A stretch of 16,143 nt of DNA from a virus (Duplodnaviria; Heunggongvirae; Uroviricota; Caudoviricetes). The position numbers and the translations under genes were made by a program. The notes beneath the pieces were generated by a model. It saw nothing but the letters and a program-made list of their open reading frames with translations. It had not been told where the DNA came from and did not search any database. Where the stretch lies: IMG/VR virus record IMGVR_UViG_2660238511_000011; one strand, written 5' to 3'. Position 1 is the stretch's first letter. Each line of letters starts with the position of its first letter. Below are positions 1-16,143 of this stretch, one piece after another.

Positions 1-1461
1 ATGAAAAAATTACTGCGTCTTTTTTTCCCGCTCTCGCTGCGGGTACGTTTTCTGTTGGCAACGGCAGCGGTAGTACTGGTGCTTTCGCTTGCCTACGGAA
101 TGGTCGCGCTGATCGGTTATAGCGTCAGTTTCGATAAAACTACGTTTCGGCTGTTACGTGGCGAGAGCAATCTGTTCTATACCCTTGCGCAGTGGGAAAA
201 CAATAAGTTGCATGTCGAGTTACCCGAAAATATCGACAAGCAAAGCCCCACCATGACGCTAATTTATGATGAGAACGGGCAGCTTTTATGGGCGCAACGT
301 GACGTGCCCTGGCTGATGAAAATGATCCAGCCTGACTGGCTGAAATCGAATGGTTTTCATGAAATTGAAGCGGATGTTAACGATACCAGCCTCTTGCTGA
401 GTGGAGATCATTCGATACAGCAACAGTTGCAGGAAGTGCGGGAAGATGATGACGACGCGGAGATGACCCACTCGGTGGCGGTAAACGTCTACCCGGCAAC
501 ATCGCGGATGCCAAAATTAACCATTGTGGTGGTGGATACCATTCCGGTGGAGCTAAAAAGTTCCTATATGGTCTGGAGCTGGTTTATCTATGTGCTCTCA
601 GCCAATCTGCTGTTAGTGATCCCGCTGCTGTGGGTCGCCGCCTGGTGGAGTTTACGCCCCATCGAAGCCCTGGCAAAAGAAGTCCGCGAACTGGAAGAAC
701 ATAACCGCGAATTGCTCAATCCAGCCACAACGCGAGAACTGACCAGTCTGGTACGAAACCTGAACCGATTGTTAAAAAGTGAACGCGAACGTTACGACAA
801 ATACCGTACGACGCTCACCGACCTGACCCATAGTCTGAAAACGCCACTGGCGGTGCTGCAAAGTACGCTGCGTTCTCTGCGTAGTGAAAAGATGAGCGTC
901 AGTGATGCTGAGCCGGTAATGCTGGAGCAAATCAGCCGCATTTCACAGCAAATTGGCTACTACCTGCATCGTGCCAGTATGCGCGGCGGGACATTGCTCA
1001 GCCGCGAGCTGCATCCGGTCGCCCCACTGCTGGACAATCTCACCTCAGCGCTGAACAAAGTGTATCAACGCAAAGGGGTCAATATCTCTCTCGATATTTC
1101 GCCAGAGATCAGCTTTGTCGGTGAGCAGAACGATTTTGTCGAGGTGATGGGCAACGTGCTGGATAATGCCTGTAAATATTGCCTCGAGTTTGTCGAAATT
1201 TCTGCAAGGCAAACCGACGAGCATCTCTATATTGTGGTCGAGGATGATGGCCCCGGTATTCCATTAAGCAAGCGAGAGGTCATTTTCGACCGTGGTCAAC
1301 GGGTTGATACTTTACGCCCTGGGCAAGGTGTAGGGCTGGCGGTAGCCCGCGAAATCACCGAGCAATATGAGGGTAAAATCGTCGCCGGAGAGAGCATGCT
1401 GGGCGGTGCGCGGATGGAGGTGATTTTTGGTCGCCAGCATTCTGCGCCGAAAGATGAATAA
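1..1461 (+). CDS. phoQ: Sensor histidine kinase PhoQ of the PhoP/PhoQ two-component system, complete, 486 aa
   Basis: ORF 1..1461 from ATG to TAA (1459-1461). Two N-terminal hydrophobic segments flank a periplasmic domain with the acidic patch EDDDDAEM. H-box [11 protein letters not shown] and HATPase motifs DNACKY, DDGPGI and GQGVGL are present. The protein is recognised from memory as enterobacterial PhoQ. Confidence 0.95.
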
Positions 1462-1579
1462 ATATGTCCTTTTACCACTACATCAAGTCATTGATTCGAT
1501 CAAACAATTTTCATTGAAAAAGTGCCAAAAATCGCAAATTGACTACACCATTAACTACACCGTTCGGTGCACTGTATGA

Positions 1580-1615
1580 AACAACGTGGAACAAATAGAC
1601 ACAAGAAATATACAG
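1580..1615 (+). promoter_or_regulatory. Copy A of the repeated motif AACAACGTGGAACAA followed by 10-bp-phased (C)ACAA repeats
   Basis: The 15-mer at 1580-1594 is identical to 9138-9152. AACAA-like units start at 1580, 1590 and 1600. Confidence 0.4.
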
Positions 1616-1970
1616 GCGGGTAATCTTTCCAGGGGGAAGCGCACCAATTCATGAGGGGCGTTAATGTCGATATGGGGATCCCCATAACGGGGCTACCGGA
1701 TTTTTTTTCCGGTTAACCTTTAATCAGGCTGGTGGGTTTTACATACCCTTGATCACCGTAATGATGATCCAGATGTGCACCTTTTCCACCAATGGCGGAA
1801 AAGCTCCAACCGTAACGATGATCGCTATGGTTGCCTCGATGGTCTGCGTGGTCATTATGACCGTTCAGCCAGTGACCTTAATCAGAATTTTTCGCTAAAA
1901 AATGACGTTGGCCACGTCATCCGGAAAGCACAAAATCACGTCGATTTTTAATGAACGGTTAAACCGTCTT

Positions 1971-2010
1971 TTTGTCACGGTGTGTCACTGGTTGTCACTC
2001 TCCGTCACGA
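1971..2010 (+). repeat. Four direct GTCAC repeats at exact 10-bp phasing
   Basis: GTCAC at 1974-1978, 1984-1988, 1994-1998 and 2004-2008. The aligned decamers are tttGTCACgg, tgtGTCACtg, gttGTCACtc and tccGTCACga. Confidence 0.45.
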
Positions 2011-2257
2011 TTGAGGTGGTGGTCATTCTGCCCGACCGCGCATTTTTGCGCTATCGGGAATATCAAACAGTTACCTCGCCGACTTCCTCAAATTGAGGTT
2101 TCCGAAAATATCAGAGCGGGTTAGCGATTAAGCTGACGAGTAATTAAACTGCGAAAATTTCGTAGTTTCTGAATATATTCCGGCCTGCTGGTTAACAGTC
2201 CTCAGATGTGAGGGATGTAGCCAGCGCAATTTTGCGCTTTGCTTTAATCTCAGTGAG

Positions 2258-2539
2258 TTACCGCCGTAACCGCTCCGGCTTCTTCCAGTGGTACGTGATT
2301 TTCTCCTTCTCCCGATACAGTTCAACGCGGCGATTGTAGGCCAGCATTTCCAGAACGCGGATCCGTATGTCGCGCATATCCGCATCATTAAGCTGGATAC
2401 CATCACGGCGCATCACCTCAGCAACAACACGCGCATAATTTTCGGCTGTCACGCTGTCCGGCTGCGTGGTCTGTTCGTCAGCCTGCTGGCTGATTCCAGA
2501 GACGCGGCGGATTAATCGCAGTATTTCGGCTTCTGTCAT
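2258..2539 (-). CDS. Hypothetical protein, 93 aa, last gene of the packaging operon
   Basis: ORF begins 13 nt after the terL stop, with a GAGGT-like ribosome-binding site about 8 nt upstream of the ATG. No family recognised. Confidence 0.5.
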   Translation of the reverse strand: MTEAEILRLIRRVSGISQQADEQTTQPDSVTAENYARVVAEVMRRDGIQLNDADMRDIRIRVLEMLAYNRRVELYREKEKITYHWKKPERLRR

Positions 2540-2552
2540 GCTGCTGACCTCA

Positions 2553-4214
2553 TTACACCCCGCTAAATTCTTCCAGTTTCTGGCGGTGGCTGTCGCTTAT
2601 ATCAAAAGCAAAATCCTCATGCTCTGCCTGGAATGTACCAAACGCCATCAGCGCCGCTACGCTCGGGTCTATCTTGTTCGGTGATTTTTTCTTGTTCGGC
2701 TTGATATTGGCGTTCGCGTCACTCTGCATCACGACGTTACTCATCGACCAGGACAACACCGGATCGCCACGATGCACAATCACCCTGCGGTTAACAAAAA
2801 CTTCGAACGATTTCGCCGCCGGACTGAATCTGAGGTAGGTTTGCGGGAACGGCTCCACCTCAAAACCAGCCCCCTGTAATTGCGTCCTGAGATGCGTGGC
2901 GTTCCACGTATCAAAGCCCACCAGCCTGATATTAAATTTCTCCGCATCCTGCATGATGTCATCTCTGATCCGGTCGTAATCAATGCAGTCACCTGGCGTT
3001 GTGCGTATCCAGCCCGCTTTAGCCCACTGGCGATAGACAGCGCGGTTTTTATTGGCGGGGTTCTGTAGCTGGAACTCCGGCAGATAATGACGGGAAATCA
3101 GCATAATGGTTTTACCGACCGGAAAGGCATAGCATACGCTGGAAATATCGCTGGTTGATGATAAGTCCAGCCCCGCGTAACACTCCTGACCGTGTAAATC
3201 TTCCTCCGTGAACGTTCCGGCACACTCAGCCCATGCACCATTACCCATCCACGGGGTAGTCCCCTGACACCAGATATTAAATCGCTTTGTCATCATCTCC
3301 ACCCACTGCGACGGAATACCCCGCGCTTTCTGGATGGTTGAGGCCAGTTTTTCACGATCCACGGAAACATCAATATTAGGGTTCGCCTTTATCCACATCG
3401 CCGGATCATCAACCTCGTTTTCGTCGTCCAGTTCGTAAATCAGTACAAAAATTGAATCGTTGACCTCTTCGCCGTCCAGGATCTGGCAGCAATAATCATA
3501 GTGCTGTTTACAGGCTGAAACGACGTTACTGCCCGATGTGGTAATGGCAAATAACAGCCCTTCGGGACGTGCGCCCATCCCCAGCTCAAGCGCGGAATAA
3601 ACGCCGTTATCGGGGTGTAGGTGGTATTCGTCCACGATGGAAAGACTGGGGTTTGTCCCCTCGATGGTTGCCGCTTTTGCTGCCAGCGGCTTTAACAGGC
3701 TGTTGCTTTTCGGGTGTATCACCTTATGCGCCTGAATATTCACCCGCCTGCGTAACGGTCGGGATAAAAGGCACATCTGACGCGCATTATCAAACACGAT
3801 CCGCGCCTGGTCACGGCTCACCGCTGCGGTGTAGATATCCTGCTGACCGTTCTCCATAATCAGAAACCAGTTAGCCAGAATCGCGGCGGTCGTGGATTTC
3901 GCATTTTTGCGCGGCACTTCGATAAAGGCGCTCGTGTATTTGCGCCGTCCGGTGGCCTTAACCTTAAAGCCGAGGATGCACGCAAAGGCGAACTGCTGCC
4001 ACGGCTCCAGCTCAATGGGTCTGCCACGCATCGGTCCTTTTACGTGCGGGCACACCCTGGAAAAGGCAATAAACCGCTCCACAACCTCACGATCGAACGT
4101 GTAAAGGGGGCTTTTAAGGTCCGAAAAGTACCGTTTAACAGCCTGTTTTAACCGTTTACAGGCCGGAATTTTGCCCGTTTTTACGTCTTCTGCGTACTTA
4201 TTCCAGGCGGTCAA
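2553..4214 (-). CDS. terL: Terminase large subunit (Terminase_1-type ATPase/nuclease), 553 aa
   Basis: Length, Walker-A-like segment VPRKNAKST and overall resemblance to phage large terminases. Its start overlaps the terS 3-prime end. Confidence 0.9.
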   Translation of the reverse strand: MTAWNKYAEDVKTGKIPACKRLKQAVKRYFSDLKSPLYTFDREVVERFIAFSRVCPHVKGPMRGRPIELEPWQQFAFACILGFKVKATGRRKYTSAFIEVPRKNAKSTTAAILANWFLIMENGQQDIYTAAVSRDQARIVFDNARQMCLLSRPLRRRVNIQAHKVIHPKSNSLLKPLAAKAATIEGTNPSLSIVDEYHLHPDNGVYSALELGMGARPEGLLFAITTSGSNVVSACKQHYDYCCQILDGEEVNDSIFVLIYELDDENEVDDPAMWIKANPNIDVSVDREKLASTIQKARGIPSQWVEMMTKRFNIWCQGTTPWMGNGAWAECAGTFTEEDLHGQECYAGLDLSSTSDISSVCYAFPVGKTIMLISRHYLPEFQLQNPANKNRAVYRQWAKAGWIRTTPGDCIDYDRIRDDIMQDAEKFNIRLVGFDTWNATHLRTQLQGAGFEVEPFPQTYLRFSPAAKSFEVFVNRRVIVHRGDPVLSWSMSNVVMQSDANANIKPNKKKSPNKIDPSVAALMAFGTFQAEHEDFAFDISDSHRQKLEEFSGV

Positions 4215-4816
4215 GCTCGTCCTCTTCTTCTGTTTCCGGTGGATTTTTACGGCGGCTTATCGGGTCAAAACCGAGCAAGGAGGCCATTTTTATCATCACT
4301 CTTTCAGCGTCGGATTTTGCGCTTAATGCGGGGTTTCTGCTCTCGCCGCCCTGACTGTTAACAATGCTGAACCCGCGCGCCGCAAGGTCTGCAACGGCTT
4401 TCCGGTAAATGGAGTAGTTGACGCAATACAGTTCCAGATTGCTCCAGTCGGCGGGGGTCAGGTCTCCCCGTTCCGCAAGCTGCCGCGATTTTTCCCGCCA
4501 CTGCTTCACGGCGATATCATCCAGGTAGGCGGGGGCGGGGTTGTCCTGAAAAAGCCCCCCNNNNNNNNNNNNNNNNNNNNNNNNNNNNNNNNNNNNNNNN
4601 NNNNNNNNNNNNNNNNNNNNNNNNNNNNNNNNNNNNNNNNNNNNNNNNNNNNNNNNNNNNNNNNNNNNNNNNNNNNNNNNNNNNGGTTAATCGCTTCGCT
4701 GTGATGCGTTCTGCGCGTCCTGACGCTTTATCTTTATGCCCTGTTTCCTGTGTCTTCCATGCGTCACGCTGCCTTATAAGTCCACGGATAAGGCGGTTTT
4801 GTTCCCGCTCATTCAT
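4198..4816 (-). CDS. terS: Terminase small subunit, P27-family-like, interrupted by an assembly gap of 124 N
   Basis: The C-terminal part (4198..4560) reads PAPAYLDDIAVKQWREK...LELYCVNYSIYRKAVADL...GGESRNPALSAKSDAERVMIKMASLLGFDPISRRK, typical of P27-family TerS. The reading frame is open up to the gap edge. An N-terminal fragment (ATG at 4816, MNEREQNRL...) runs in frame into the other gap edge and overlaps the HNH stop. Confidence 0.6.
4561..4684. other. Assembly gap (124 N) inside terS
   Basis: Run of N characters. Confidence 0.99.
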
Positions 4817-5249
4817 CAGCGTCATACATCCAGTTATTGCGGTTAGCAGCCCGTTCTTCCTCTTCACGAAATCCACCTGCGGCACGCTTGCTTTTTGTTG
4901 CCGGATCAAGCCATTTCGTTTTCTGGTTATGACACGCCTGGCACAATGGTTGATGGTTCCATTCGGGCCAGAAGAGAACATCATCACCGCCATTAATCGG
5001 GATAATGTGATCCACCACCACGGCGGGCGTATATATCCCCTTCTCAAGGCATCGCACGCATAACGGGTTTTTACTCAGATACATGGCGCGGTATTTGTCC
5101 CACTGTCTGGAATATCCACGCGCGCGGCGGTGTCCTCGTCTGGCATCCTCTGCACGCCATGCCGCCCGCCTGTGCTCCTCACACTTGCCGGATTTAACGC
5201 GCCTGTTACAGCCTGGTTCTGTGCATCGTCTTAATGGTTGCCACGGCAT
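4809..5249 (-). CDS. HNH endonuclease, phage packaging-associated, 146 aa
   Basis: Cys pairs and the DHIIP...N...CxxCHNxKT motif. It sits directly upstream of terS/terL, and its start overlaps the upstream stop as ATGA. Confidence 0.85.
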   Translation of the reverse strand: MPWQPLRRCTEPGCNRRVKSGKCEEHRRAAWRAEDARRGHRRARGYSRQWDKYRAMYLSKNPLCVRCLEKGIYTPAVVVDHIIPINGGDDVLFWPEWNHQPLCQACHNQKTKWLDPATKSKRAAGGFREEEERAANRNNWMYDADE

Positions 5250-5545
5250 CAGTACCCCCCCACATCACGGTAAGCCGTCCAGAGTGCGCCTATCGTCATG
5301 GGTACGCGTGTTTTTGCGTTATCCGCGACAATCTGGCGATTTTCATACAGGTGAGCGATAAACATCATGCAGCCAATCTTTATGGCTGGCGTGAACGCCA
5401 GCCCGTCATCAAAGCGCCTGCCTATGTGTATCTGGCACGCCTCAAGCGATGCGGCAATGTATCCGCTGATTAACTGGTCTTCATCGTCGCCATCGATGCG
5501 GCAATGGAGTTTCACTTCTTCCAGGGTGATAAGTTCTTCTGTCAT
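5249..5545 (-). CDS. Head-tail connector protein, gp6-like, 98 aa
   Basis: N-terminal LTLEEVKLHCRIDGDDEDQLI signature of gp6-like connector proteins. The gene is translationally coupled on both sides. Confidence 0.75.
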   Translation of the reverse strand: MTEELITLEEVKLHCRIDGDDEDQLISGYIAASLEACQIHIGRRFDDGLAFTPAIKIGCMMFIAHLYENRQIVADNAKTRVPMTIGALWTAYRDVGGY

Positions 5546-5943
5546 TTTTCCGCGCCCTCACGACAAAGAATTTCAAGGCGTGTCCTGGCGGCATCCGGCA
5601 GCGGCTGCCCGATGATATTCAGTACACGCCCCGCCAGCGNNNNNNNNNNNNNNNNNNNNNNCAGCGGCTGCCCGATGATATTCAGTACACGCCCCGCCAG
5701 CGGCCCCGTACTGACCTTTATCCGGCTGGTGGCGTTGATGTCCTTCCGGTACCGTATCCAGATCCTTACGGTACCAATCGCCAGCTCTGCGCCCGATGAA
5801 ATGGCCTCCTTGCTGCTGACCATGTTCACGCTTGCCCAGAGTGTGTGACCGTCCTCCCACGTTTCGAGTATTTCGCCGGTTATATCCCTGGTCTGTTTCA
5901 GGGTCTGAATCGTTATCCTGTCACGCAGTCGCCCTATGTTCAT
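5542..5943 (-). CDS. Head-tail adaptor / head-closure protein (SPP1 gp16-like); contains a 22-N gap flanked by a duplicated 41 bp
   Basis: MNIGRLRDRITIQ...WASV...VRIWIRYRKDI pattern. The likely start is the ATG at 5943 overlapping the portal stop. The ORF track start at 5985 is probably an upstream extension. Confidence 0.7.
   Translation of the reverse strand: MNIGRLRDRITIQTLKQTRDITGEILETWEDGHTLWASVNMVSSKEAISSGAELAIGTVRIWIRYRKDINATSRIKVSTGPLAGRVLNIIGQPLXXXXXXXXLAGRVLNIIGQPLPDAARTRLEILCREGAEK
5640..5661. other. Assembly gap (22 N) flanked by a perfect 41-bp direct repeat (5599-5639 and 5662-5702)
   Basis: N-run; the identical sequence cagcggctgcccgatgatattcagtacacgccccgccagcg lies on both sides. 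Confidence 0.95.
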
Positions 5944-7151
5944 TCCGGTTTTTCTCCCTCGCTGATTTTTACTTCCTGTTTCCATGCCTGGCTGAACTCA
6001 TCACCACCATCACGCGGTGACAGCCCTTCACGTTCGCGGGCTTCGTTCGGACACATAACGTCGGATTTTATGCCGCGCTCATAGGTGGCAAAGCGTTCGC
6101 CAGGTGTGGCCCGTAACAGGTCCGCGCTGTCAAACTCCACCTGATACCGGATACCAGGTACAGGCGAGGCCACCAGCAAGGCGTTTTTTATCTGCTGCTC
6201 AAAGTTCGCCAGCCACGGGCGCATCGTCATGGTGAGAAATGCGCGGCTTGCCTCGCTGAAGTTGCTGTAGGTGCTGTTGCTGTATTCCTGCAAAAAAATC
6301 GGCGAGACGTTGAACATTCGGGCGATGTCTTCAATGGTGAAGCGACGGGAGGCCAGCCATTCGGCATCCTGATTACTCATGCCCAGCTGCTGATAGCTCA
6401 TCCCCCCTTCAAGGATGGGCGTTTTTCCGGCGTTTCTGGCCCCTTTGTAGCGTTCCAGTGCGGCTAATGCCTGTTTGCCCTTCACGCCGTCCAGCCATTC
6501 GCCTGACGTGATAACCCCTGCCGCCATCATGCCATCACGCATCACGCTCGCGCCGTGGCGTTGTTGGGCCAGCCCAAGCCCCAGCGATTCGCGGCAGATG
6601 GTTACAGGTGAGCGCCCCATAAAACCGTCATCCGTGGAGTAACGAAGGTGGAGAACCTCCCACGGTAAATAGTTGCGGGTGTTTCCGGTGTAGGCGTCAG
6701 TGATGCAGTAGCGCCAGTTATGATCACCTGTCTGATCCACGTTCACCGACTGCGGCGGGTAAGGATGTAAAGCCGCCGGAAAACCATCACGCCCCCACTG
6801 AATAACCGCATAAGCATTACCACTTAACAGGCAGTAGCGGATCATCATTCGCTTAAACTGGTAGGGTGTCTGCCACGCGTTCGGGCGCTCGTTGAGGATG
6901 TGATCGACCGGATGAGAATCAAGCCATTCGCGGGCCTCCTTCCCCTTCTCATTGCGTACCAGGTACAGGTAACACGGCATGGTAGCCACCGCGTCAGAGA
7001 TGACCGTGACGGCGTTCATGACGGCGGGGAGTGATTCCGCTGTCCCAGATGATACGTACTCACCCGCCCCCGTGTTCGATGTGCCGGCCAGCGCCATAAA
7101 TTCATCAAGCGTCATGCTGCGCTGCTCTTTTTTTCGTCTGAAAGGCCACAT
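5940..7151 (-). CDS. Portal protein, HK97 family, 403 aa
   Basis: Size and conserved portal core (ILEGGMSYQQLGMSNQDAEWLASRRFTIEDIARMFNVSP). Confidence 0.9.
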   Translation of the reverse strand: MWPFRRKKEQRSMTLDEFMALAGTSNTGAGEYVSSGTAESLPAVMNAVTVISDAVATMPCYLYLVRNEKGKEAREWLDSHPVDHILNERPNAWQTPYQFKRMMIRYCLLSGNAYAVIQWGRDGFPAALHPYPPQSVNVDQTGDHNWRYCITDAYTGNTRNYLPWEVLHLRYSTDDGFMGRSPVTICRESLGLGLAQQRHGASVMRDGMMAAGVITSGEWLDGVKGKQALAALERYKGARNAGKTPILEGGMSYQQLGMSNQDAEWLASRRFTIEDIARMFNVSPIFLQEYSNSTYSNFSEASRAFLTMTMRPWLANFEQQIKNALLVASPVPGIRYQVEFDSADLLRATPGERFATYERGIKSDVMCPNEAREREGLSPRDGGDEFSQAWKQEVKISEGEKPE

Positions 7152-7152
7152 A

Positions 7153-7725
7153 TCACACCCCCGCTAAATCCGCCCACCAGCGGCGATTATCCGCACGCGG
7201 CATTTTTTCGGGGTGCTGCTCATACAGGGAACGGCGGGCCAGCTCCACGCCGGAATCGGGGTAAGCCGGTACCGATGTAACGGTAATTTCGTACAGTTCC
7301 GCCACCAGCACGGTGCGCACGCATGGATCTGTTGTGGTATCCCATACATCCTTACGGGAGCGAAAGCCAAAGCTCATCCCCGAGATGTCCCCACGCTTAA
7401 CCAGTTCGATAACGTCGCGCCCTGTACTGGGATCCGGTGGGGTCAGTTCAAAGCGTAACCCTGTTTCGTCCTCTTCCAGTTTCAGCGTGCCGGAACGGGT
7501 GCGCCCCAGTAACATGCTGTGGTCATGCTCATACAGGCCGCGAACGTCATTACCCGCCGCAAGCCATTCAGTAAACGCCCCCCGCTGGAATTTTTCGTAA
7601 AACTCACCCCATAACAGTTCTGAAAGCTTATCCCAGCGAACAACGTAGCCCGTCAGCGTACCGGCTCCGCTGGTGGTGATTTCCGATGACCGGATTTCCA
7701 TACTCTTCATAATTTTTTCACCCAT
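7153..7725 (-). CDS. Prohead maturation protease, HK97 family, 190 aa
   Basis: Size, position between the capsid and portal genes, and a conserved His-containing segment (YEHDHS). Confidence 0.85.
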   Translation of the reverse strand: MGEKIMKSMEIRSSEITTSGAGTLTGYVVRWDKLSELLWGEFYEKFQRGAFTEWLAAGNDVRGLYEHDHSMLLGRTRSGTLKLEEDETGLRFELTPPDPSTGRDVIELVKRGDISGMSFGFRSRKDVWDTTTDPCVRTVLVAELYEITVTSVPAYPDSGVELARRSLYEQHPEKMPRADNRRWWADLAGV

Positions 7726-7734
7726 AAAACACTA

Positions 7735-7754
7735 AAGGGGCTTTTTAGCCCCTT
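7735..7754 (-). terminator. Intergenic hairpin (8-bp stem AAGGGGCT/AGCCCCTT) 10 nt after the capsid stop; candidate partial terminator
   Basis: Perfect 8-bp stem with a 4-nt loop, followed on the minus strand by a moderately U-rich stretch before the protease start. Confidence 0.4.
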
Positions 7755-7764
7755 CTGTATGCTG

Positions 7765-8094
7765 TTAATCGTCGTCTTCCGGCAGTGCCAGAATCTTGAT
7801 CGCGTTCGAATCCACCACGCCACCGCCTAAATATTTTTGCGTGAAAATTTTGATGAATCCTGGTTCTGTCAGGTTGTCCGGTCTGGTGCGAACACCTGTT
7901 TCGTGATCAACAATGTAGTAACCGCGTTTGAAGTCACCCAGGGCAATAACGTTATCAGGCATAAACTCCAGATATTCGACCGGAAGGCCCAGCAACGTAT
8001 CAGGATCACCCGCCTGTAAACGGTCGCGCCAGATATAATCACCGTTCGCGTTCTTCACCTTCTGAAGTTTTGCCGCCGTCGTGGAGTTAACCAC
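7765..8094 (-). CDS. Major capsid protein (HK97 fold), C-terminal fragment downstream of an in-frame TGA
   Basis: Same frame as ORF 8095..8970. Translation VNSTTAAKLQKV...TLLGLPVEYLEFMPD continues the capsid protein. Confidence 0.8.
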   Translation of the reverse strand: MVNSTTAAKLQKVKNANGDYIWRDRLQAGDPDTLLGLPVEYLEFMPDNVIALGDFKRGYYIVDHETGVRTRPDNLTEPGFIKIFTQKYLGGGVVDSNAIKILALPEDDD

Positions 8095-14204: not shown

Positions 14205-14350
14205 ATGCCTGAAAAAACCCAATTTTGTGGTTTTCCAGTTTCACCAGGGCGAACGAATCCCCGCCCACGTTCTGGCGTATATTCAATCTTCATGGTTATA
14301 GCTCTGTGTTCAGATGATTGATGTGTGGCGGCTGCGTGCCGCCAGCGTGA

Positions 14351-14539
14351 TTAATGAACTGCCTTGCAGCTATCCTTCCAGGCCAGAACCTCGGATAAAG
14401 ACCAGCCAACGGAACGACCGCCAAGTTTACGACGTGATGGGAATTGTCCGGCCTTTTCCAGGCGGTAGCGGCATGAGCGGCTAAGGCCTGTTAGCTTTTC
14501 GCATTCTTTTTCACGTATAAACCGATCAGTGCTTAACAC
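14351..14539 (-). CDS. alpA: AlpA-family excisionase / transcriptional regulator, 62 aa, GTG start
   Basis: IREKECEKLTGLSRSCRYRLEKAGQFP...GRSVGWSLSEVLAWK matches the AlpA/Vis helix-turn-helix pattern. A strong AGGGGG ribosome-binding site lies 4 nt upstream. It sits next to the integrase. Confidence 0.85.
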   Translation of the reverse strand: MLSTDRFIREKECEKLTGLSRSCRYRLEKAGQFPSRRKLGGRSVGWSLSEVLAWKDSCKAVH

Positions 14540-14700
14540 TATTGCCCCCTTTCGTTTCTTAAAGAGTTATTTCGTGTTCTATTGCGTTGGGATGTGTCTG
14601 ATTGTGTCAGGATGATTCAGAGTTGGCAAATGTTGAGGCCGTATGGTTTACAGAAAGAGGAATAATCAGGATAAAATCCTTTAAATTCATGTTAATACAA

Positions 14701-14730
14701 AGGCATAAAATATTGTTTCATGCCTTTTTT
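14701..14730. terminator. Hairpin AGGCAT-13 nt-ATGCCT with T-run; candidate terminator between int and alpA
   Basis: 6-bp stem followed by TTTTT on the plus strand and by a weaker U-rich tract on the minus strand. It may terminate the int transcript or a plus-strand small RNA. Confidence 0.35.
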
Positions 14731-14820
14731 CTCGCTATTTAAAGAGTGATTCGCTAGTGTATAAAAAATCAGTAACACATTAAAAATCAGCTACTTATAA
14801 ATCTGCACACTTTTTCACCT

Positions 14821-14870
14821 CTTGTTCGTAGTTGTTCCGCTTTGTTGCTCATTGTTGCACGTTGTATCTG
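14821..14870 (-). promoter_or_regulatory. Copy C of the motif (ACAACGTGCAACAA) with 10-bp-phased AACAA repeats, minus-strand orientation, just after the int stop
   Basis: Forward-strand TTGTT at 14823, 14832, 14842 and 14852, and TTGT at 14862. The reverse complement of 14852-14865 is ACAACGTGCAACAA, 13 of 14 identical to copies A and B. Confidence 0.45.
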
Positions 14871-14913
14871 TTCGCATATCCAGTATGCGCATACTGAAAA
14901 AACACGAAAAAAA

Positions 14914-16143
14914 TTATTTTCTTCTGGCTACTGGTAGCGTGGTTACGTTTTCATGTGTTCCCGCCAGTATCCCTAACCGCTCCGTCCACATATCCAGCGC
15001 ATTGCGTTTAGCATCCAGATAACGGGAATGATTATAAACTCGCTGCATTCCTGGCATCTGGTGGCCTGTAAGCTGCTCCACGACGTGAGGATCCACGCCT
15101 AAATCGTTCAGCATCGTTGTAAAGGTGCGCCGGATGTCATGTAGTGACCAGTGAGGGTGATTTAGCCTCCTGTGCGCTAATCTGCCGTACTGCGACACGC
15201 TTGTTTCCTGTTTCACTTCCCCCAGCAATAAGCCCGTGTGCCTGTTCTGCTCCACCAGCTGCGTGACGAACGGCAGTATTGCTTCCGGTATGGGCCGGAA
15301 TATTGCCACCTTCGTTTTGCTGTGTTCTTTCGGCACGGTCCAGAGCATTTCGGTAAAATCCCACTCGCTGATCTCCGATAACCTCAGTTCTACCGTCCGG
15401 CATCCGAACACAATCAGGAGGCGGATTAACGCGATGTAGTAGGGGGAGAATATTTTTTTGTCCAGTGCCTGCAATAATTCGCCCAGTTCTTTGGTGCTTA
15501 AGACACGCTCGCTTATATCCGGTTTTTTCCCAACGTCCGCCACACTCATATCATCAAGAACGTTGCTGATTGCATAGCGCCGCCTCCGGCAGAACTTAAG
15601 CGCCTGTTTGCACGTCTGTAGCAAGAATCCGGCAGTAACAGGCGTTCGCTTTGCCACCTGGTCAAAACAGGCCAGCCAGTGCCGTAGCTCGCATTTATCC
15701 AGCGGCATAGCACCAATGTGCTGTATTACGTGATTATTAAGGCGCTTTTTCAGGGCGGCATAATCCACGCGGTTTTCCTTTGCGTACGACTCAAGCCAGT
15801 AGGTGAGCGCATCGCCAACCGTTACCGGCTTTAACGCTTCCTGTACGGTGTAATTAAGCTCATGACGTGGATTTTTCCCCTCTGCCAGCCATGCGCGACA
15901 CTGGGCGGCTTTTTCCCTGGCTGATTTCAGGTTCAGATCAGGATAATTTCCCAGCTTAATGCGTTCCGGTGGTGCCCCCCTTCCCGTTCCGGCCCTGTAA
16001 GTGAAATACCAGGTTAAAAGGCCACTGGTTGAATGCCTGACGCTCAGGTTTCCACCGTCATTAAGAAAGGCTGTTTTTTGGGCGGGTGTGCCGTTGATTT
16101 TCCTCAGCTGTGTATCGCTCAGTTTGTTAAGTGCTCTGCTCAT
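14914..16143 (-). CDS. int: Tyrosine recombinase / integrase, P4 family, 409 aa; start codon is the last 3 bases of the window
   Basis: N-terminal arm-binding-type domain (LSDTQLRKI...GGNLSVRHSTSGLLTWYFTYR...), C-terminal catalytic region with HDIRRT and the tyrosine-containing RVYNHSRYL. Confidence 0.9.
   Translation of the reverse strand: MSRALNKLSDTQLRKINGTPAQKTAFLNDGGNLSVRHSTSGLLTWYFTYRAGTGRGAPPERIKLGNYPDLNLKSAREKAAQCRAWLAEGKNPRHELNYTVQEALKPVTVGDALTYWLESYAKENRVDYAALKKRLNNHVIQHIGAMPLDKCELRHWLACFDQVAKRTPVTAGFLLQTCKQALKFCRRRRYAISNVLDDMSVADVGKKPDISERVLSTKELGELLQALDKKIFSPYYIALIRLLIVFGCRTVELRLSEISEWDFTEMLWTVPKEHSKTKVAIFRPIPEAILPFVTQLVEQNRHTGLLLGEVKQETSVSQYGRLAHRRLNHPHWSLHDIRRTFTTMLNDLGVDPHVVEQLTGHQMPGMQRVYNHSRYLDAKRNALDMWTERLGILAGTHENVTTLPVARRK

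Follow-up and report, generated by a model that had tools for sequence, protein, structure and literature searches.

The interval described here spans positions 1462-2257 of the window (the whole stretch of DNA that was analyzed, 16,143 nucleotides). It lies between phoQ, whose stop codon is at 1459-1461, and a minus-strand gene for a 93-amino-acid protein. The ORF map, the annotation of relatives 94-97% identical to the window, and Pfam and PHROG matches give a gene content of int-alpA-primase-SSB-PerC-capsid-protease-portal-connectors-HNH-terS-terL. The element thus combines int, alpA and a primase/replicase module with its own HK97-type packaging and capsid genes, has no tail or lysis genes, and measures about 15 kb, which is the gene content of a capsid-forming PICI (cf-PICI). 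The copy in the window looks defective (nonsense codon in the capsid gene, start of terS deleted), and the recombination and spacer elements listed below may no longer work in this damaged island. By position, the features in and around the interval are:

1460-1469, no strand: att core AAATATGTCC (crossover region), its first two bases being the end of the phoQ stop codon; the host/island junction follows 1469
1477-1484, plus strand: core-proximal arm-type site, degenerate (ACTACATC; exact ACTACACC in relative L001)
1484-1496, minus strand: IHF consensus WATCAANNNNTTR (AATCAATGACTTG), between core and arm sites
1538-1561, plus strand: pair of arm-type repeats (ATTGACTACACC and ATTAACTACACC) to which the Int arm-binding domain may bind
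1579-1615, minus strand: phased array TTGTGT-N4-TTGTTC-N4-TTGTTT (motif A), candidate AlpA/RDF boxes
1616-1694, no strand: G-run-rich segment with palindrome TATGGGGATCCCCATA (1671-1686), kept only among islands of this integrase type
1672-1685: palindrome ATGGGGATCCCCAT, inside the preceding segment
1695-1713, no strand: hairpin ACCGGA-T7-TCCGGT; the length of the T-run differs between relatives, which shifts reading frames
1716-1898, no strand: overlapping ORF relics, a His/Gly-rich minus frame lacking a start codon (1716-1877) and a hydrophobic plus ORF (1749-1898)
1718-1740, plus strand: block TTAATCAGGCTGGTGGGYTTTAC with Chi octamer GCTGGTGG at 1728-1735, invariant in 8 of 9 aligned spacers
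1738-1765, plus strand: promoter-like match TTTACA-16-AATGAT, its -35 being the 3' end of the Chi block
1894-1920, minus strand: hairpin ATGACGT-N5-ACGTCAT with a U6 tail, where the late (capsid/terminase) operon may terminate
1955-1975, plus strand: hairpin ACGGTTAAACCGT followed by CTTTTTGT, terminator-like, convergent with the hairpin at 1894-1920
1974-2008, plus strand: four GTCAC pentamers in exact 10-bp phasing (1974, 1984, 1994, 2004)
2030-2075, plus strand: repeat unit a, strong hairpin CCCGACCGCGCATTTTTGCGCTATCGGG (fold z = -4.2) followed by a match to the IHF consensus, TATCAAACAGTTA (2061-2073)
2053-2223, no strand: indel-polymorphic segment bordered by 15-bp repeats GCGCAWTTTTGCGCT (2038-2052 and 2224-2238), containing a near-palindrome CTGCGAAAATTTCGTAG and a hairpin CCTCAGATGTGAGG
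2086-2098, inside the preceding segment: hairpin CCTCAAATTGAGG of unit b, followed by a degenerate IHF box
2215-2262, plus strand: repeat unit c, hairpin AGCGCAATTTTGCGCT with a T-rich tail (2223-2248), terminator-like on the plus strand
2258-2539, minus strand: gene of the 93-amino-acid protein (phrog_1561), last gene of the late operon, anchoring the conserved spacer module

In island-free E. coli, phoQ is followed after 76 bp by roxA, in line with the original prediction, which had expected a host gene shortly after phoQ and placed the island junction within a few tens of bp of the phoQ stop codon. The window departs from the island-free sequence 8 bp past that stop, and the majority of E. 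coli genomes align to it no further than 1469. The empty site of strain KSC207 reads GAATAAATATGTCC/ATACTTCACGC (slash, junction), the window AAATATGTCC/TTTTACCAC, and the int-side junction in two relatives (L001 and L004) GATAAAATATGTCC/ATACTTCAC. The 10-bp sequence AAATATGTCC is present in attB of L002, at 1460-1469 of the window and at the int-side junction of L001 and L004, where a direct repeat had been anticipated. The int-proximal arm of the window's own island lies outside the window, and the core direct repeat is seen in the 94-97% identical islands. Because relatives integrated at tqsA carry the DNA from 1489 onward without an adjoining phoQ, all of 1470-2257 is island DNA, as had been proposed. 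Its G+C content is 44.6% in the interval, compared with 50.2% in the whole window. The boundary of the island is thereby placed to the base, at an attachment site (phoQ/roxA) common to the two best-studied E. coli PICIs, EcCIEDL933 and EcCICFT073, the prototype islands of strains EDL933 and CFT073 (bioRxiv 10.1101/2022.09.08.507074; PMC6092414). A criterion in the literature is that PICI attachment sites are never occupied by prophages; what identifies phoQ/roxA as such a site is its use by these two prototypes. Between islands integrated at phoQ and at tqsA, the integrases show a 10% divergence that is concentrated in the first 60 residues; our expectation had been that att specificity would show up as differences in the core-binding or catalytic domains, and the divergence sits N-terminally instead.

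The interval contains no convincing gene, as predicted. No RefSeq annotation lies under this DNA among the matches listed of the 1179 genomes that carry part of it, and the three ORFs or frames tested had no Pfam or NCBIfam match. Searches of libraries of billions brought up just 2, 9 and 7 predicted proteins, all sporadic. Reading frames are broken or shifted by indels in L003, L005, L006, L007 and L008, and with broken ORFs and almost no homologues neither relic is a convincing gene, including one for a small protein or type I toxin. The tRNA and ncRNA scans proposed with the original prediction both came back empty in the interval (ARAGORN for tRNA; Rfam at the gathering threshold and at E up to 5). 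The sRNA Esr41 of EHEC, considered as a possible match, is located in SpLE1/OI-43, and a preprint on the Pas sRNA makes no mention of PICIs or phoQ. A search for oriT among 72,556 plasmid records gave 5 matches, none of them a known oriT likeness and all 5 typed non-mobilizable; 4 share this spacer DNA over 175-655 bases, and the remaining match is weak (60 bp, 80% identity). Homologues of the neighboring 93-amino-acid protein are all annotated as 'hypothetical'. AF2 models it as a bundle of three helices (pLDDT 70.5), for which neither PDB nor BFVD gave an informative fold match; tblastn found no relic paralogue of it in the spacers, and a search for related loci with this protein returned only two.

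The interval is also dense in palindromes, as had been noted. It holds 11 perfect stems (at least 6 bp, loop of at most 9), compared with 1.96 +/- 1.41 across 300 dinucleotide shuffles that never attained this number, and the count is the highest among all 796-bp frames in the window. Every motif singled out beforehand (the ACTACACC pair, motif A at 1580-1615, the palindrome at 1672-1685, the T7 hairpin, the GTCAC array and the terminator-like hairpin) was recovered where it had been placed. The hairpins and arrays are non-random.

The segment from 1460 to about 1620, or to 1694 at most, appears to be one arm of a recombination site. Of the suggestion that the interval holds the second att arm and/or the packaging site, the arm stands for the first 150-230 bases; the packaging site is not supported, as detailed below. 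Attachment sites (attP) of the lambda and P4 type consist of a core, arm-type Int sites, IHF sites and Xis/Vis sites. The island resembles them in its short core, identical in attB and both junctions, its direct-repeat arm sites flanking the core, its IHF consensus between core and arms, and the phased array of a second motif adjoining the arm sites; the integrase has an N-terminal arm-binding domain, and int adjoins one arm, with sites over its promoter region. It differs in that both arms have the entire 75-bp module, arm pair together with phased array, in the same orientation, in that the phased motif also occurs at two promoter-proximal internal places, and in that the island sites are predicted ones.

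The predicted IHF site between core and arm sites is found at a fixed position, with varying N4, in 7 of 7 arms of the phoQ/tqsA type, with about 0.04 expected per spacer in shuffles. The ACTACACC copies at 1542-1549 and 1554-1561 are the sole exact ones in the 16 kb when both strands are searched. In the islands seen whole (L001, L003 and L004) the pair occurs exactly twice, once per arm, and it is also present in the arms of PICIs with other att sites (L017 and L018); where the att type differs, the pair is kept but stands at a changed distance from the TTGTTY array. These predicted sites on both sides of the core go together with an integrase that carries an arm-binding domain (PF13356, Arm-DNA-bind_3, E = 2e-17), and alpA is encoded in the island. 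The 75-bp module at 1537-1611 recurs at 77% identity directly upstream of the int ATG in L001. TTGTTY arrays, of which 200 shuffles produced 0, are found at four places: in this arm, in the int-proximal arm of relatives, at 9137-9162 (minus strand) before the capsid gene, and at 14822-14867 (plus strand) between int and alpA. The array between int and alpA is oriented opposite to the other three. The outermost segment, 1616-1694, is nearly invariant in the window, L001, L003, L004, L005, L008 and L013, and islands with other integrase types (L006 and L007) diverge left of 1694.

In the arrangement that we propose, the 10-bp core would be followed by an IHF bend site, phased A-tracts, the ACTACACC arm sites and the 10-bp-phased TTGTTY array. 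The two (ancestrally three) ACTACACC sites would be bound by the arm-binding domain of a P4-like tyrosine integrase, and the island AlpA would bind the TTGTTY array as a directionality factor and activator. The arm motifs recur in both arms; which protein binds which motif is a putative assignment, and the two could be swapped or wrong. We infer AlpA boxes from the placement of the arrays, which are found over the int promoter in the int-proximal arm, ahead of the capsid operon and between int and alpA, and from published genetics, in which PICIs need AlpA to excise and AlpA activates its own gene (PMC6092414, PMC11773190). In EcCICFT073, Fillol-Salom et al. (2018) saw no effect of AlpA on the activity of the int promoter (PMC6092414), which speaks against AlpA being simply an activator at the int-side array. 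If the motifs are indeed AlpA boxes, they would account for helper-induced AlpA setting off excision and late expression together. The interval thus offers candidates for three items that are undefined in the cited PICI literature: the Int arm sites (ACTACACC), the AlpA operator (phased TTGTTY) and the end of the late operon.

The remainder, 1695-2257, is a mosaic spacer common to PICIs with unrelated integrases and packaging modules. Its part up to 2176 (1694-2176) is 96.7% identical to a different PICI whose neighboring gene is merely 89% identical. The spacers of L006 and L012 carry extra genes. The spacer would thus be a slot that holds cargo genes in other PICIs and is empty and eroded here, although the 96.7% versus 89% identity could mean constraint on an unrecognized function rather than erosion. 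The Chi block, invariant in eight of the nine aligned spacers, differs by one flanking base in the ninth, that of CFT073 (TCAATCAGG). The exact Chi octamer 5'-GCTGGTGG-3' is present as a sequence match, and all spacers examined have at least one Chi in the same orientation (12 on the plus strand versus 1 on the minus strand).

Three hairpins have the form of intrinsic terminators and are candidate terminators: 1955-1975 and 2223-2248 on the plus strand, and 1920-1894 on the minus strand. A terminator consensus scan found 2 sites with 1.6 expected, which is not above chance. The minus-strand hairpin, with its 3 G-C pairs, is weak, and L017 has a degraded version. In L003 and L017 the variant ATGGTTAAACCGT of the hairpin at 1955-1975 keeps its pairing solely as a plus-strand U-G wobble. 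On this sequence evidence, 1695-2257 would be a termination and insulation zone in the eroded cargo slot. Late-operon transcription would stop short of attP and int at the convergent hairpins (about 1920-1894 on the minus strand, 1955-1975 and 2223-2250 on the plus strand), which would also keep phoQ read-through from entering the late operon in antisense.

Altogether, the interval is probably the non-coding, int-distal end of a capsid-forming PICI that belongs to the EcCIEDL933 family and is integrated at the phoQ/roxA site; this end is made up of an att arm and a mosaic spacer. As a feature it is of an ordinary kind, though some of its details are undescribed. EcCIEDL933, the prototype cf-PICI (L005; bioRxiv 10.1101/2022.09.08.507074), likewise has its att site directly after phoQ, the same gene order ending in terS-terL and the 93-amino-acid gene, the Chi block, and an att arm kept from the core to about window position 1866 at 88.5% identity. 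In place of window positions 1867-2035 (the GTCAC array and both convergent terminator-like hairpins), however, it has up to five hairpin and IHF-box units, in a spacer of 857 bp; the island of the window differs from it further by the nonsense codon in capsid and the deletion at the start of terS. EcCICFT073, the prototype Gram-negative PICI (L013; PMC6092414, PMC6739421), shares the att site, the integrase type, the 93-amino-acid gene and a homologous unannotated spacer of 555 bp with arm motifs and Chi block. It differs in being a classical PICI that uses helper capsids, with rppA and with two lambda-type cos sites (exact GGGCGGCGACCT) upstream of the 93-amino-acid gene, and in lacking terS/terL/HNH and the GTCAC array.

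The GTCAC array was matched in none of 200 dinucleotide shuffles, with 2 mismatches allowed; 229 of 5426 E. coli genomes carry it. Wherever its surroundings were examined (window, L001, L004, L007, L014, L017 and L018) it stands downstream of the 93/94-amino-acid gene, with differing integrases, and all 5 substitutions among the window, L017 and L018 fall between pentamers. Further along, unit a (2030-2075) repeats unit c (2215-2262), which runs into the stop codon of the 93-amino-acid gene (2258-2260), and the segment 2053-2223 is missing in L004, exactly between the two 15-bp repeats. Together, the array and the hairpin/IHF-box units mark a region of gain and loss of PICI cargo genes. A replication origin was rejected for the array: the iterons of the island are TCTACC/GGTAGA at 10380-10628 and are unlike GTCAC. 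We also dropped matS, which we take to need inverted GTGAC/GTCAC, and Pho boxes, presumably of 11-bp period, both unfit in geometry; integron attC, whose R'/R'' boxes we take to be absent; and CRP half-sites, Ter sites and REP/BIME elements, whose geometry presumably does not fit either. Any role of the array is putative. A larger proposal is that the phased TTGTTY motif is an AlpA operator coupling excision, autoregulation and late transcription, and that the module after the 93-amino-acid gene (the GTCAC array plus tandem hairpin/IHF-box units with covarying stems) is a nucleoprotein assembly serving as insulator, 3'-end processing site or cassette-capture site, the two forming an undescribed cis-regulatory system of Gram-negative PICIs; we regard this as speculative, with a low but real chance of being right.

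A smaller function has been weighed for the center of the spacer, namely a plus-strand transcription unit with the promoter-like match at 1738-1765, an RNA of about 200 nt and a terminator at 1955-1975, which would encode a hydrophobic toxin-like peptide (MIAMVASMVCVVIMTVQPVTLIRIFR) or act as a regulatory RNA, perhaps with an antisense partner that ends at 1894. Its -35 lies inside a near-invariant block and the -10-like hexamer persists in divergent versions, but the promoter match is 9/12, within chance expectation. The terminator retains its pairing through U-G wobble on the plus strand only, and 1704-1868 is more widely shared than any other part of the spacer; the 3' half of the unit (1870-1975), however, is absent in EDL933, CFT073 and L008. 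Although the peptide of the 26-codon ORF stays hydrophobic through all 7 nucleotide changes that separate L003 from the window, all substitutions are non-synonymous in both overlapping frames, and the ORF lacks a clear ribosome-binding site, is stopped in L006, startless in L008 and divergent past codon 16 in EDL933. Gene calls for it amount to a sporadic handful in libraries of 5.8 billion and 1.84 billion proteins, and Rfam is without a match even at E = 5. This makes such a unit unlikely.

That the spacer beyond the att arm is functionless debris (decayed cargo-gene relics, recombination scars and leftover terminators) seems to us just as doubtful. Among relatives the spacer measures between 510 and 1170 bp, with indel polymorphism at short repeats and frame-shifted ORF relics; the repeat units resemble the 3' flank and stop codon of the 93-amino-acid gene, short fragments are similar to the lambdoid roi and R genes, and the rest of the island is decaying. 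Yet PICIs that differ in integrase and packaging module keep one order of elements, 8 of 9 spacers have the Chi block unchanged, and every carrier retains the GTCAC pentamers intact amid changing surroundings. The hairpins, too, persist between units even as their sequences differ.

Least probable is that the interval contains the cos or pac site of the island with the GTCAC array or the G-run palindromes as terminase recognition elements: the phased direct repeats and IHF-like boxes beside palindromes do recall the logic of lambda cosB, where R sites are interleaved with IHF sites, and 1616-1694 has the G-run/C-run style of the candidate cos, but 1462-2257 holds no lambda cosN (GGGCGGCGACCT-like) within three mismatches, its alignment to lambda cos scores 25, inside the shuffle range (mean 21, maximum 31), and its similarity to the HNH-terS intergenic region of relatives is not significant (shuffle range). 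A resemblance to lambda cos seen by eye at 2028-2052 gave nothing above chance in local alignment and the cosN search. The GTCAC array is missing from EcCIEDL933 and EcCICFT073, both transfer-proficient, and the exact lambda cosN copies of EcCICFT073 flank rppA and are not in its spacer. The packaging-site lead is thus unsupported and very probably wrong. In HK97, cos lies between HNH and terS, whereas the interval is downstream of terL; the island family has the same HNH...terS arrangement with a similar G-run...C-run motif in the gap. The candidate cos of the island is between HNH and terS, at about 4528-4690, some 2.5 kb from the interval and partly masked by N and partly deleted in the window. 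For a Klebsiella cf-PICI, the 16.5-kb record obtained from an induced lysate begins 22 bp ahead of terS, and the G-run...C-run motif forms its end.

In E. coli strains lacking the island, 76 bp separate phoQ from roxA, the next gene. The query matched 5426 of 5426 genomes, 57 of which cover at least 80% of it, and most genomes among the matches listed end at window position 1469. The empty site reads GAATAAATATGTCC joined to ATACTTCACGC, the window GAATAAATATGTCC joined to TTTTACCAC, and two related islands, L001 and L004, have GATAAAATATGTCC joined to ATACTTCAC at their integrase-side junction. Comparison of these three junction sequences gives AAATATGTCC (1460-1469) as the core, which overlaps the phoQ stop codon. 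The original prediction had placed the island junction close to this stop codon and had suggested looking for the att direct repeat at the other end of the island; the alignment with the island-free site bears out the placement, and the core is present at the int-side junction of L001 and L004. Close relatives inserted in tqsA align from window position 1489 onward without an adjoining phoQ. Therefore, the entire 1462-2257 interval is island DNA, as had been supposed. The island lies to the right of phoQ, with its genes nearly all on the minus strand, in this order:

1-1461, plus strand: phoQ
2258-2539: 93-aa gene, the first island gene after phoQ
2553-4214: terL, then terS and an HNH endonuclease gene
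next: head-tail connector, portal, prohead protease and HK97-type capsid genes
then: PerC-like gene, SSB gene and D5/primase-type replicase gene (10629-12377)
then: small genes and alpA (14351-14539)
14914-16143, minus strand: tyrosine integrase gene (int)

The right edge of the window is exactly the integrase start codon. This gene content is that of a capsid-forming PICI (cf-PICI), a satellite family published with EcCIEDL933 as the prototype (bioRxiv 10.1101/2022.09.08.507074). The EDL933 island is also located directly after phoQ, and so is that of CFT073, EcCICFT073, the prototype Gram-negative PICI (PMC6092414). The interval is almost identical to that of Shigella flexneri SFBU1023 (2 mismatches). 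In kind, the feature is ordinary: it is the end of a satellite of a known family, on the attachment-site side. Some of its details are undescribed and testable: the sites in the arm, the arrays proposed as AlpA boxes, the GTCAC array, and the units of hairpin and IHF box.

All motifs named in the original prediction were located in the interval at their predicted positions, and they are not due to chance. The exact octamer ACTACACC occurs in the whole window only at 1542 and 1554, the fourfold GTCAC pattern was obtained in 0 of 200 dinucleotide shuffles with two mismatches tolerated, and the interval contains 11 perfect stems with 6 bp or more (1.96 +/- 1.41 in shuffles), the top value among all frames of the window. 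The interval had been judged to hold no convincing gene, and annotation, family, homologue, and relatives' frame checks all argue against coding. In the records listed from the 1179 genomes that carry part of the interval, no RefSeq feature lies under its DNA; Pfam and NCBIfam searches of its ORFs gave no family match, and the tRNA and Rfam scans of the interval were empty. A His/Gly-rich minus-strand frame lacking a start codon (1716-1877) matched 2 predicted proteins among 5.8 billion, and a hydrophobic plus-strand ORF (1749-1898) gave 9 matches, plus 7 among 1.84 billion representatives. In relatives, the copies of both frames are broken by 1-nt indels, stops, or divergence, and the T run in the loop of the 1695-1713 hairpin varies in length, resulting in a frameshift.

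The proposal that the interval contains an att arm was correct. The arm extends from 1460 to about 1620, at most to 1694, and includes:

1477-1484: degenerate arm-type site, exact in L001
1484-1496, minus strand: IHF consensus WATCAANNNNTTR
between the IHF consensus and the arm-type pair: phased A-tracts
1538-1561: arm-type pair ATTGACTACACC/ATTAACTACACC
1579-1604, minus strand: motif A, TTGTGT-N4-TTGTTC-N4-TTGTTT, with 10-bp phasing

The evidence is comparative. A second copy of the 75-bp module formed by the pair and the array, 77% identical and in the same orientation, directly precedes the int ATG in the other arm, and every island covered in full has exactly one ACTACACC pair per arm. In 7 of 7 arms of this type, the IHF consensus keeps its place and is variable at its four N positions (chance expectation of a match, approximately 0.04), and the integrase carries the arm-binding domain PF13356. 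In the PICIs at bioD and clpS (L017 and L018), the pair and a GAACAA x3 array are both kept at a changed mutual distance. These arm motifs are candidate recombination elements, and we infer the pairing of proteins with individual motifs. Positions 1616-1694, including the GGGGATCCCC palindrome, are conserved only among islands of this integrase type. The integrases of the phoQ-site island and of the tqsA-site island L003 (18509-19738) are 90% identical, with the differences clustered in residues 1-60 (the arm-binding domain); the cores of these islands differ (AAATATGTCC versus GCTGTTAT) and their arm sites are nearly the same.

TTGTTY arrays are also found at 9137-9162 (minus strand), after a terminator and approximately 20 bp before a weak -10 preceding the capsid gene, and, with five units, at 14822-14867 (plus strand), between int and alpA. 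None occurred in shuffles. Because PICIs require AlpA to excise and AlpA stimulates its own expression (PMC6092414, PMC11773190), we propose these arrays as candidate AlpA boxes, putative operators of this master regulator. Against a simple version of this proposal count the inverted orientation of the array near alpA relative to the other three, and the fact that int promoter activity is unchanged by AlpA in EcCICFT073 (PMC6092414).

From 1695 on, the DNA is common to PICIs with other integrases and other packaging modules, and the classical PICI L007 is 96.7% identical to the window over 1694-2176. All PICIs sharing this spacer have its elements in one common order:

1695-1713: hairpin ACCGGA-T7-TCCGGT, the first spacer element
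1728-1735: Chi within the block TTAATCAGGCTGGTGGGYTTTAC, invariant in 8 of 9 aligned spacers (in CFT073, a single flanking base is changed)
after the Chi block: ORF relics
1920-1894, minus strand: hairpin followed by U6
1955-1975, plus strand: terminator-like hairpin
1974-2008: GTCAC x4 array
2030-2075, 2081-2125 and 2215-2262: three degenerate hairpin/IHF-box units, each about 45-50 bp long and made up of a hairpin, TTYCSGAAA and WATCARNNNNTTA

The third unit extends over the stop codon of the 93-aa gene. Up to five such units are present in EDL933 and three in the related element L006; the stems differ in sequence from unit to unit and retain their form. L004 lacks 2053-2223, a gap that falls exactly between 15-bp repeats GCGCAWTTTTGCGCT. 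Spacers are 510 to 1170 bp long, and since the L006 spacer contains a Q-antiterminator-family gene and that of a Klebsiella cf-PICI a 765-aa gene, the spacer is a cargo location in such islands. The GTCAC array was found in 229 of the 5426 genomes, always downstream of the 93/94-aa gene in the contexts examined, and 5 of 5 substitutions among three lineages fall between the pentamers. EcCIEDL933 and EcCICFT073, both transfer-proficient according to the literature, lack the array, which is therefore unnecessary for the life cycle. From these sequence features we infer that the spacer probably serves for termination and insulation and lies in a cargo slot that has been emptied and is eroding. 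In the excised circle, it would end the late operon ahead of attP and int; it would also block phoQ read-through from entering the late operon antisense. In L006 (NZ_AP042616.1, 2750-2960), perfect palindromes TTACGAAATTTTCGTAA, each followed by CCTTGTTCCGGYGGGG, recur and look like operators of a dimeric regulator; the window has one decayed copy of this type, CTGCGAAAATTTCGTAG (2149-2165).

The island contains 13 Chi octamers in 14.7 kb (1470-16143), approximately 1 per 1.1 kb, a density several times that of E. coli on average:

plus strand: 1728, 5725, 7669, 11590
minus strand: 2918, 6170, 7174, 7302, 9714, 9976, 11329, 14091, 15252

Nine of the 13 are on the gene-encoding strand. This abundance may protect linear or concatemeric DNA of the satellite from RecBCD. 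The Chi-containing 16-mer GCCCACCAGCCTGATA is identical at 2916-2931 and 14089-14104, both within genes, and has a near-copy in opposite orientation in the Chi block of the spacer (1723-1740).

The interval had also been put forward as a packaging site, which is not supported: a search of the interval for a lambda-type cosN found none, alignments of the interval with lambda cos scored inside the shuffle range, and it has no significant similarity to the family's HNH-terS region, the candidate cos region. In EcCICFT073, two exact cosN copies lie on either side of rppA, upstream of the 93-aa gene (PMC6739421). By analogy with HK97, the cf-PICI cos would sit between HNH and terS, and this gap in relatives has GGGGTGGGGGGCGTTTTCAGGACAAACCCGACCCCGCC, in a G-run...C-run style like that of the HK97 cos region. 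A Klebsiella cf-PICI record of 16.5 kb, obtained from an induced lysate, starts 22 bp before terS and ends within a GGGGTGGGGGGCGTTTTCAGGACAAACCCGACCCCGCC-type motif, moderate evidence because its authors may have re-oriented the record.

The island copy in the window itself looks defective. The capsid gene has an in-frame TGA at 8095-8097 where relatives have TGG (Trp), and a deletion between two CCCCGCC repeats, also present in S. flexneri SFBU1023, removed the terS start (MARPPK) plus about 95 bp upstream and thus left terS without a start codon. The candidate cos motif GGGGGGCTTTTTCAGGACAACCCCGCCCCCGCC (4528-4560, minus strand) runs straight into terS codon 7 and lies beside an N run. The capsid TGA and the terS deletion suggest that the island can no longer package itself. 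This N run (4561-4684, 124 bases) covers the expected cos place, where the Shigella relative has 61 bases. A second one (5640-5661, 22 bases), with the same 41-nt sequence on each side (5599-5639 and 5662-5702), looks like an unmerged assembly gap. Two identical copies of the 23-nt AAAAAGCCGGATTGCTCCGGCTG (9182-9204 and 9545-9567) read as terminators on the minus strand and bracket a 100-aa ORF (9223-9525). Dense iterons (T/G)TCTACC / GGTAGA(C/T)AG in both orientations occupy 10380-10628, downstream of the primase gene, and are likely the replication origin of the island.
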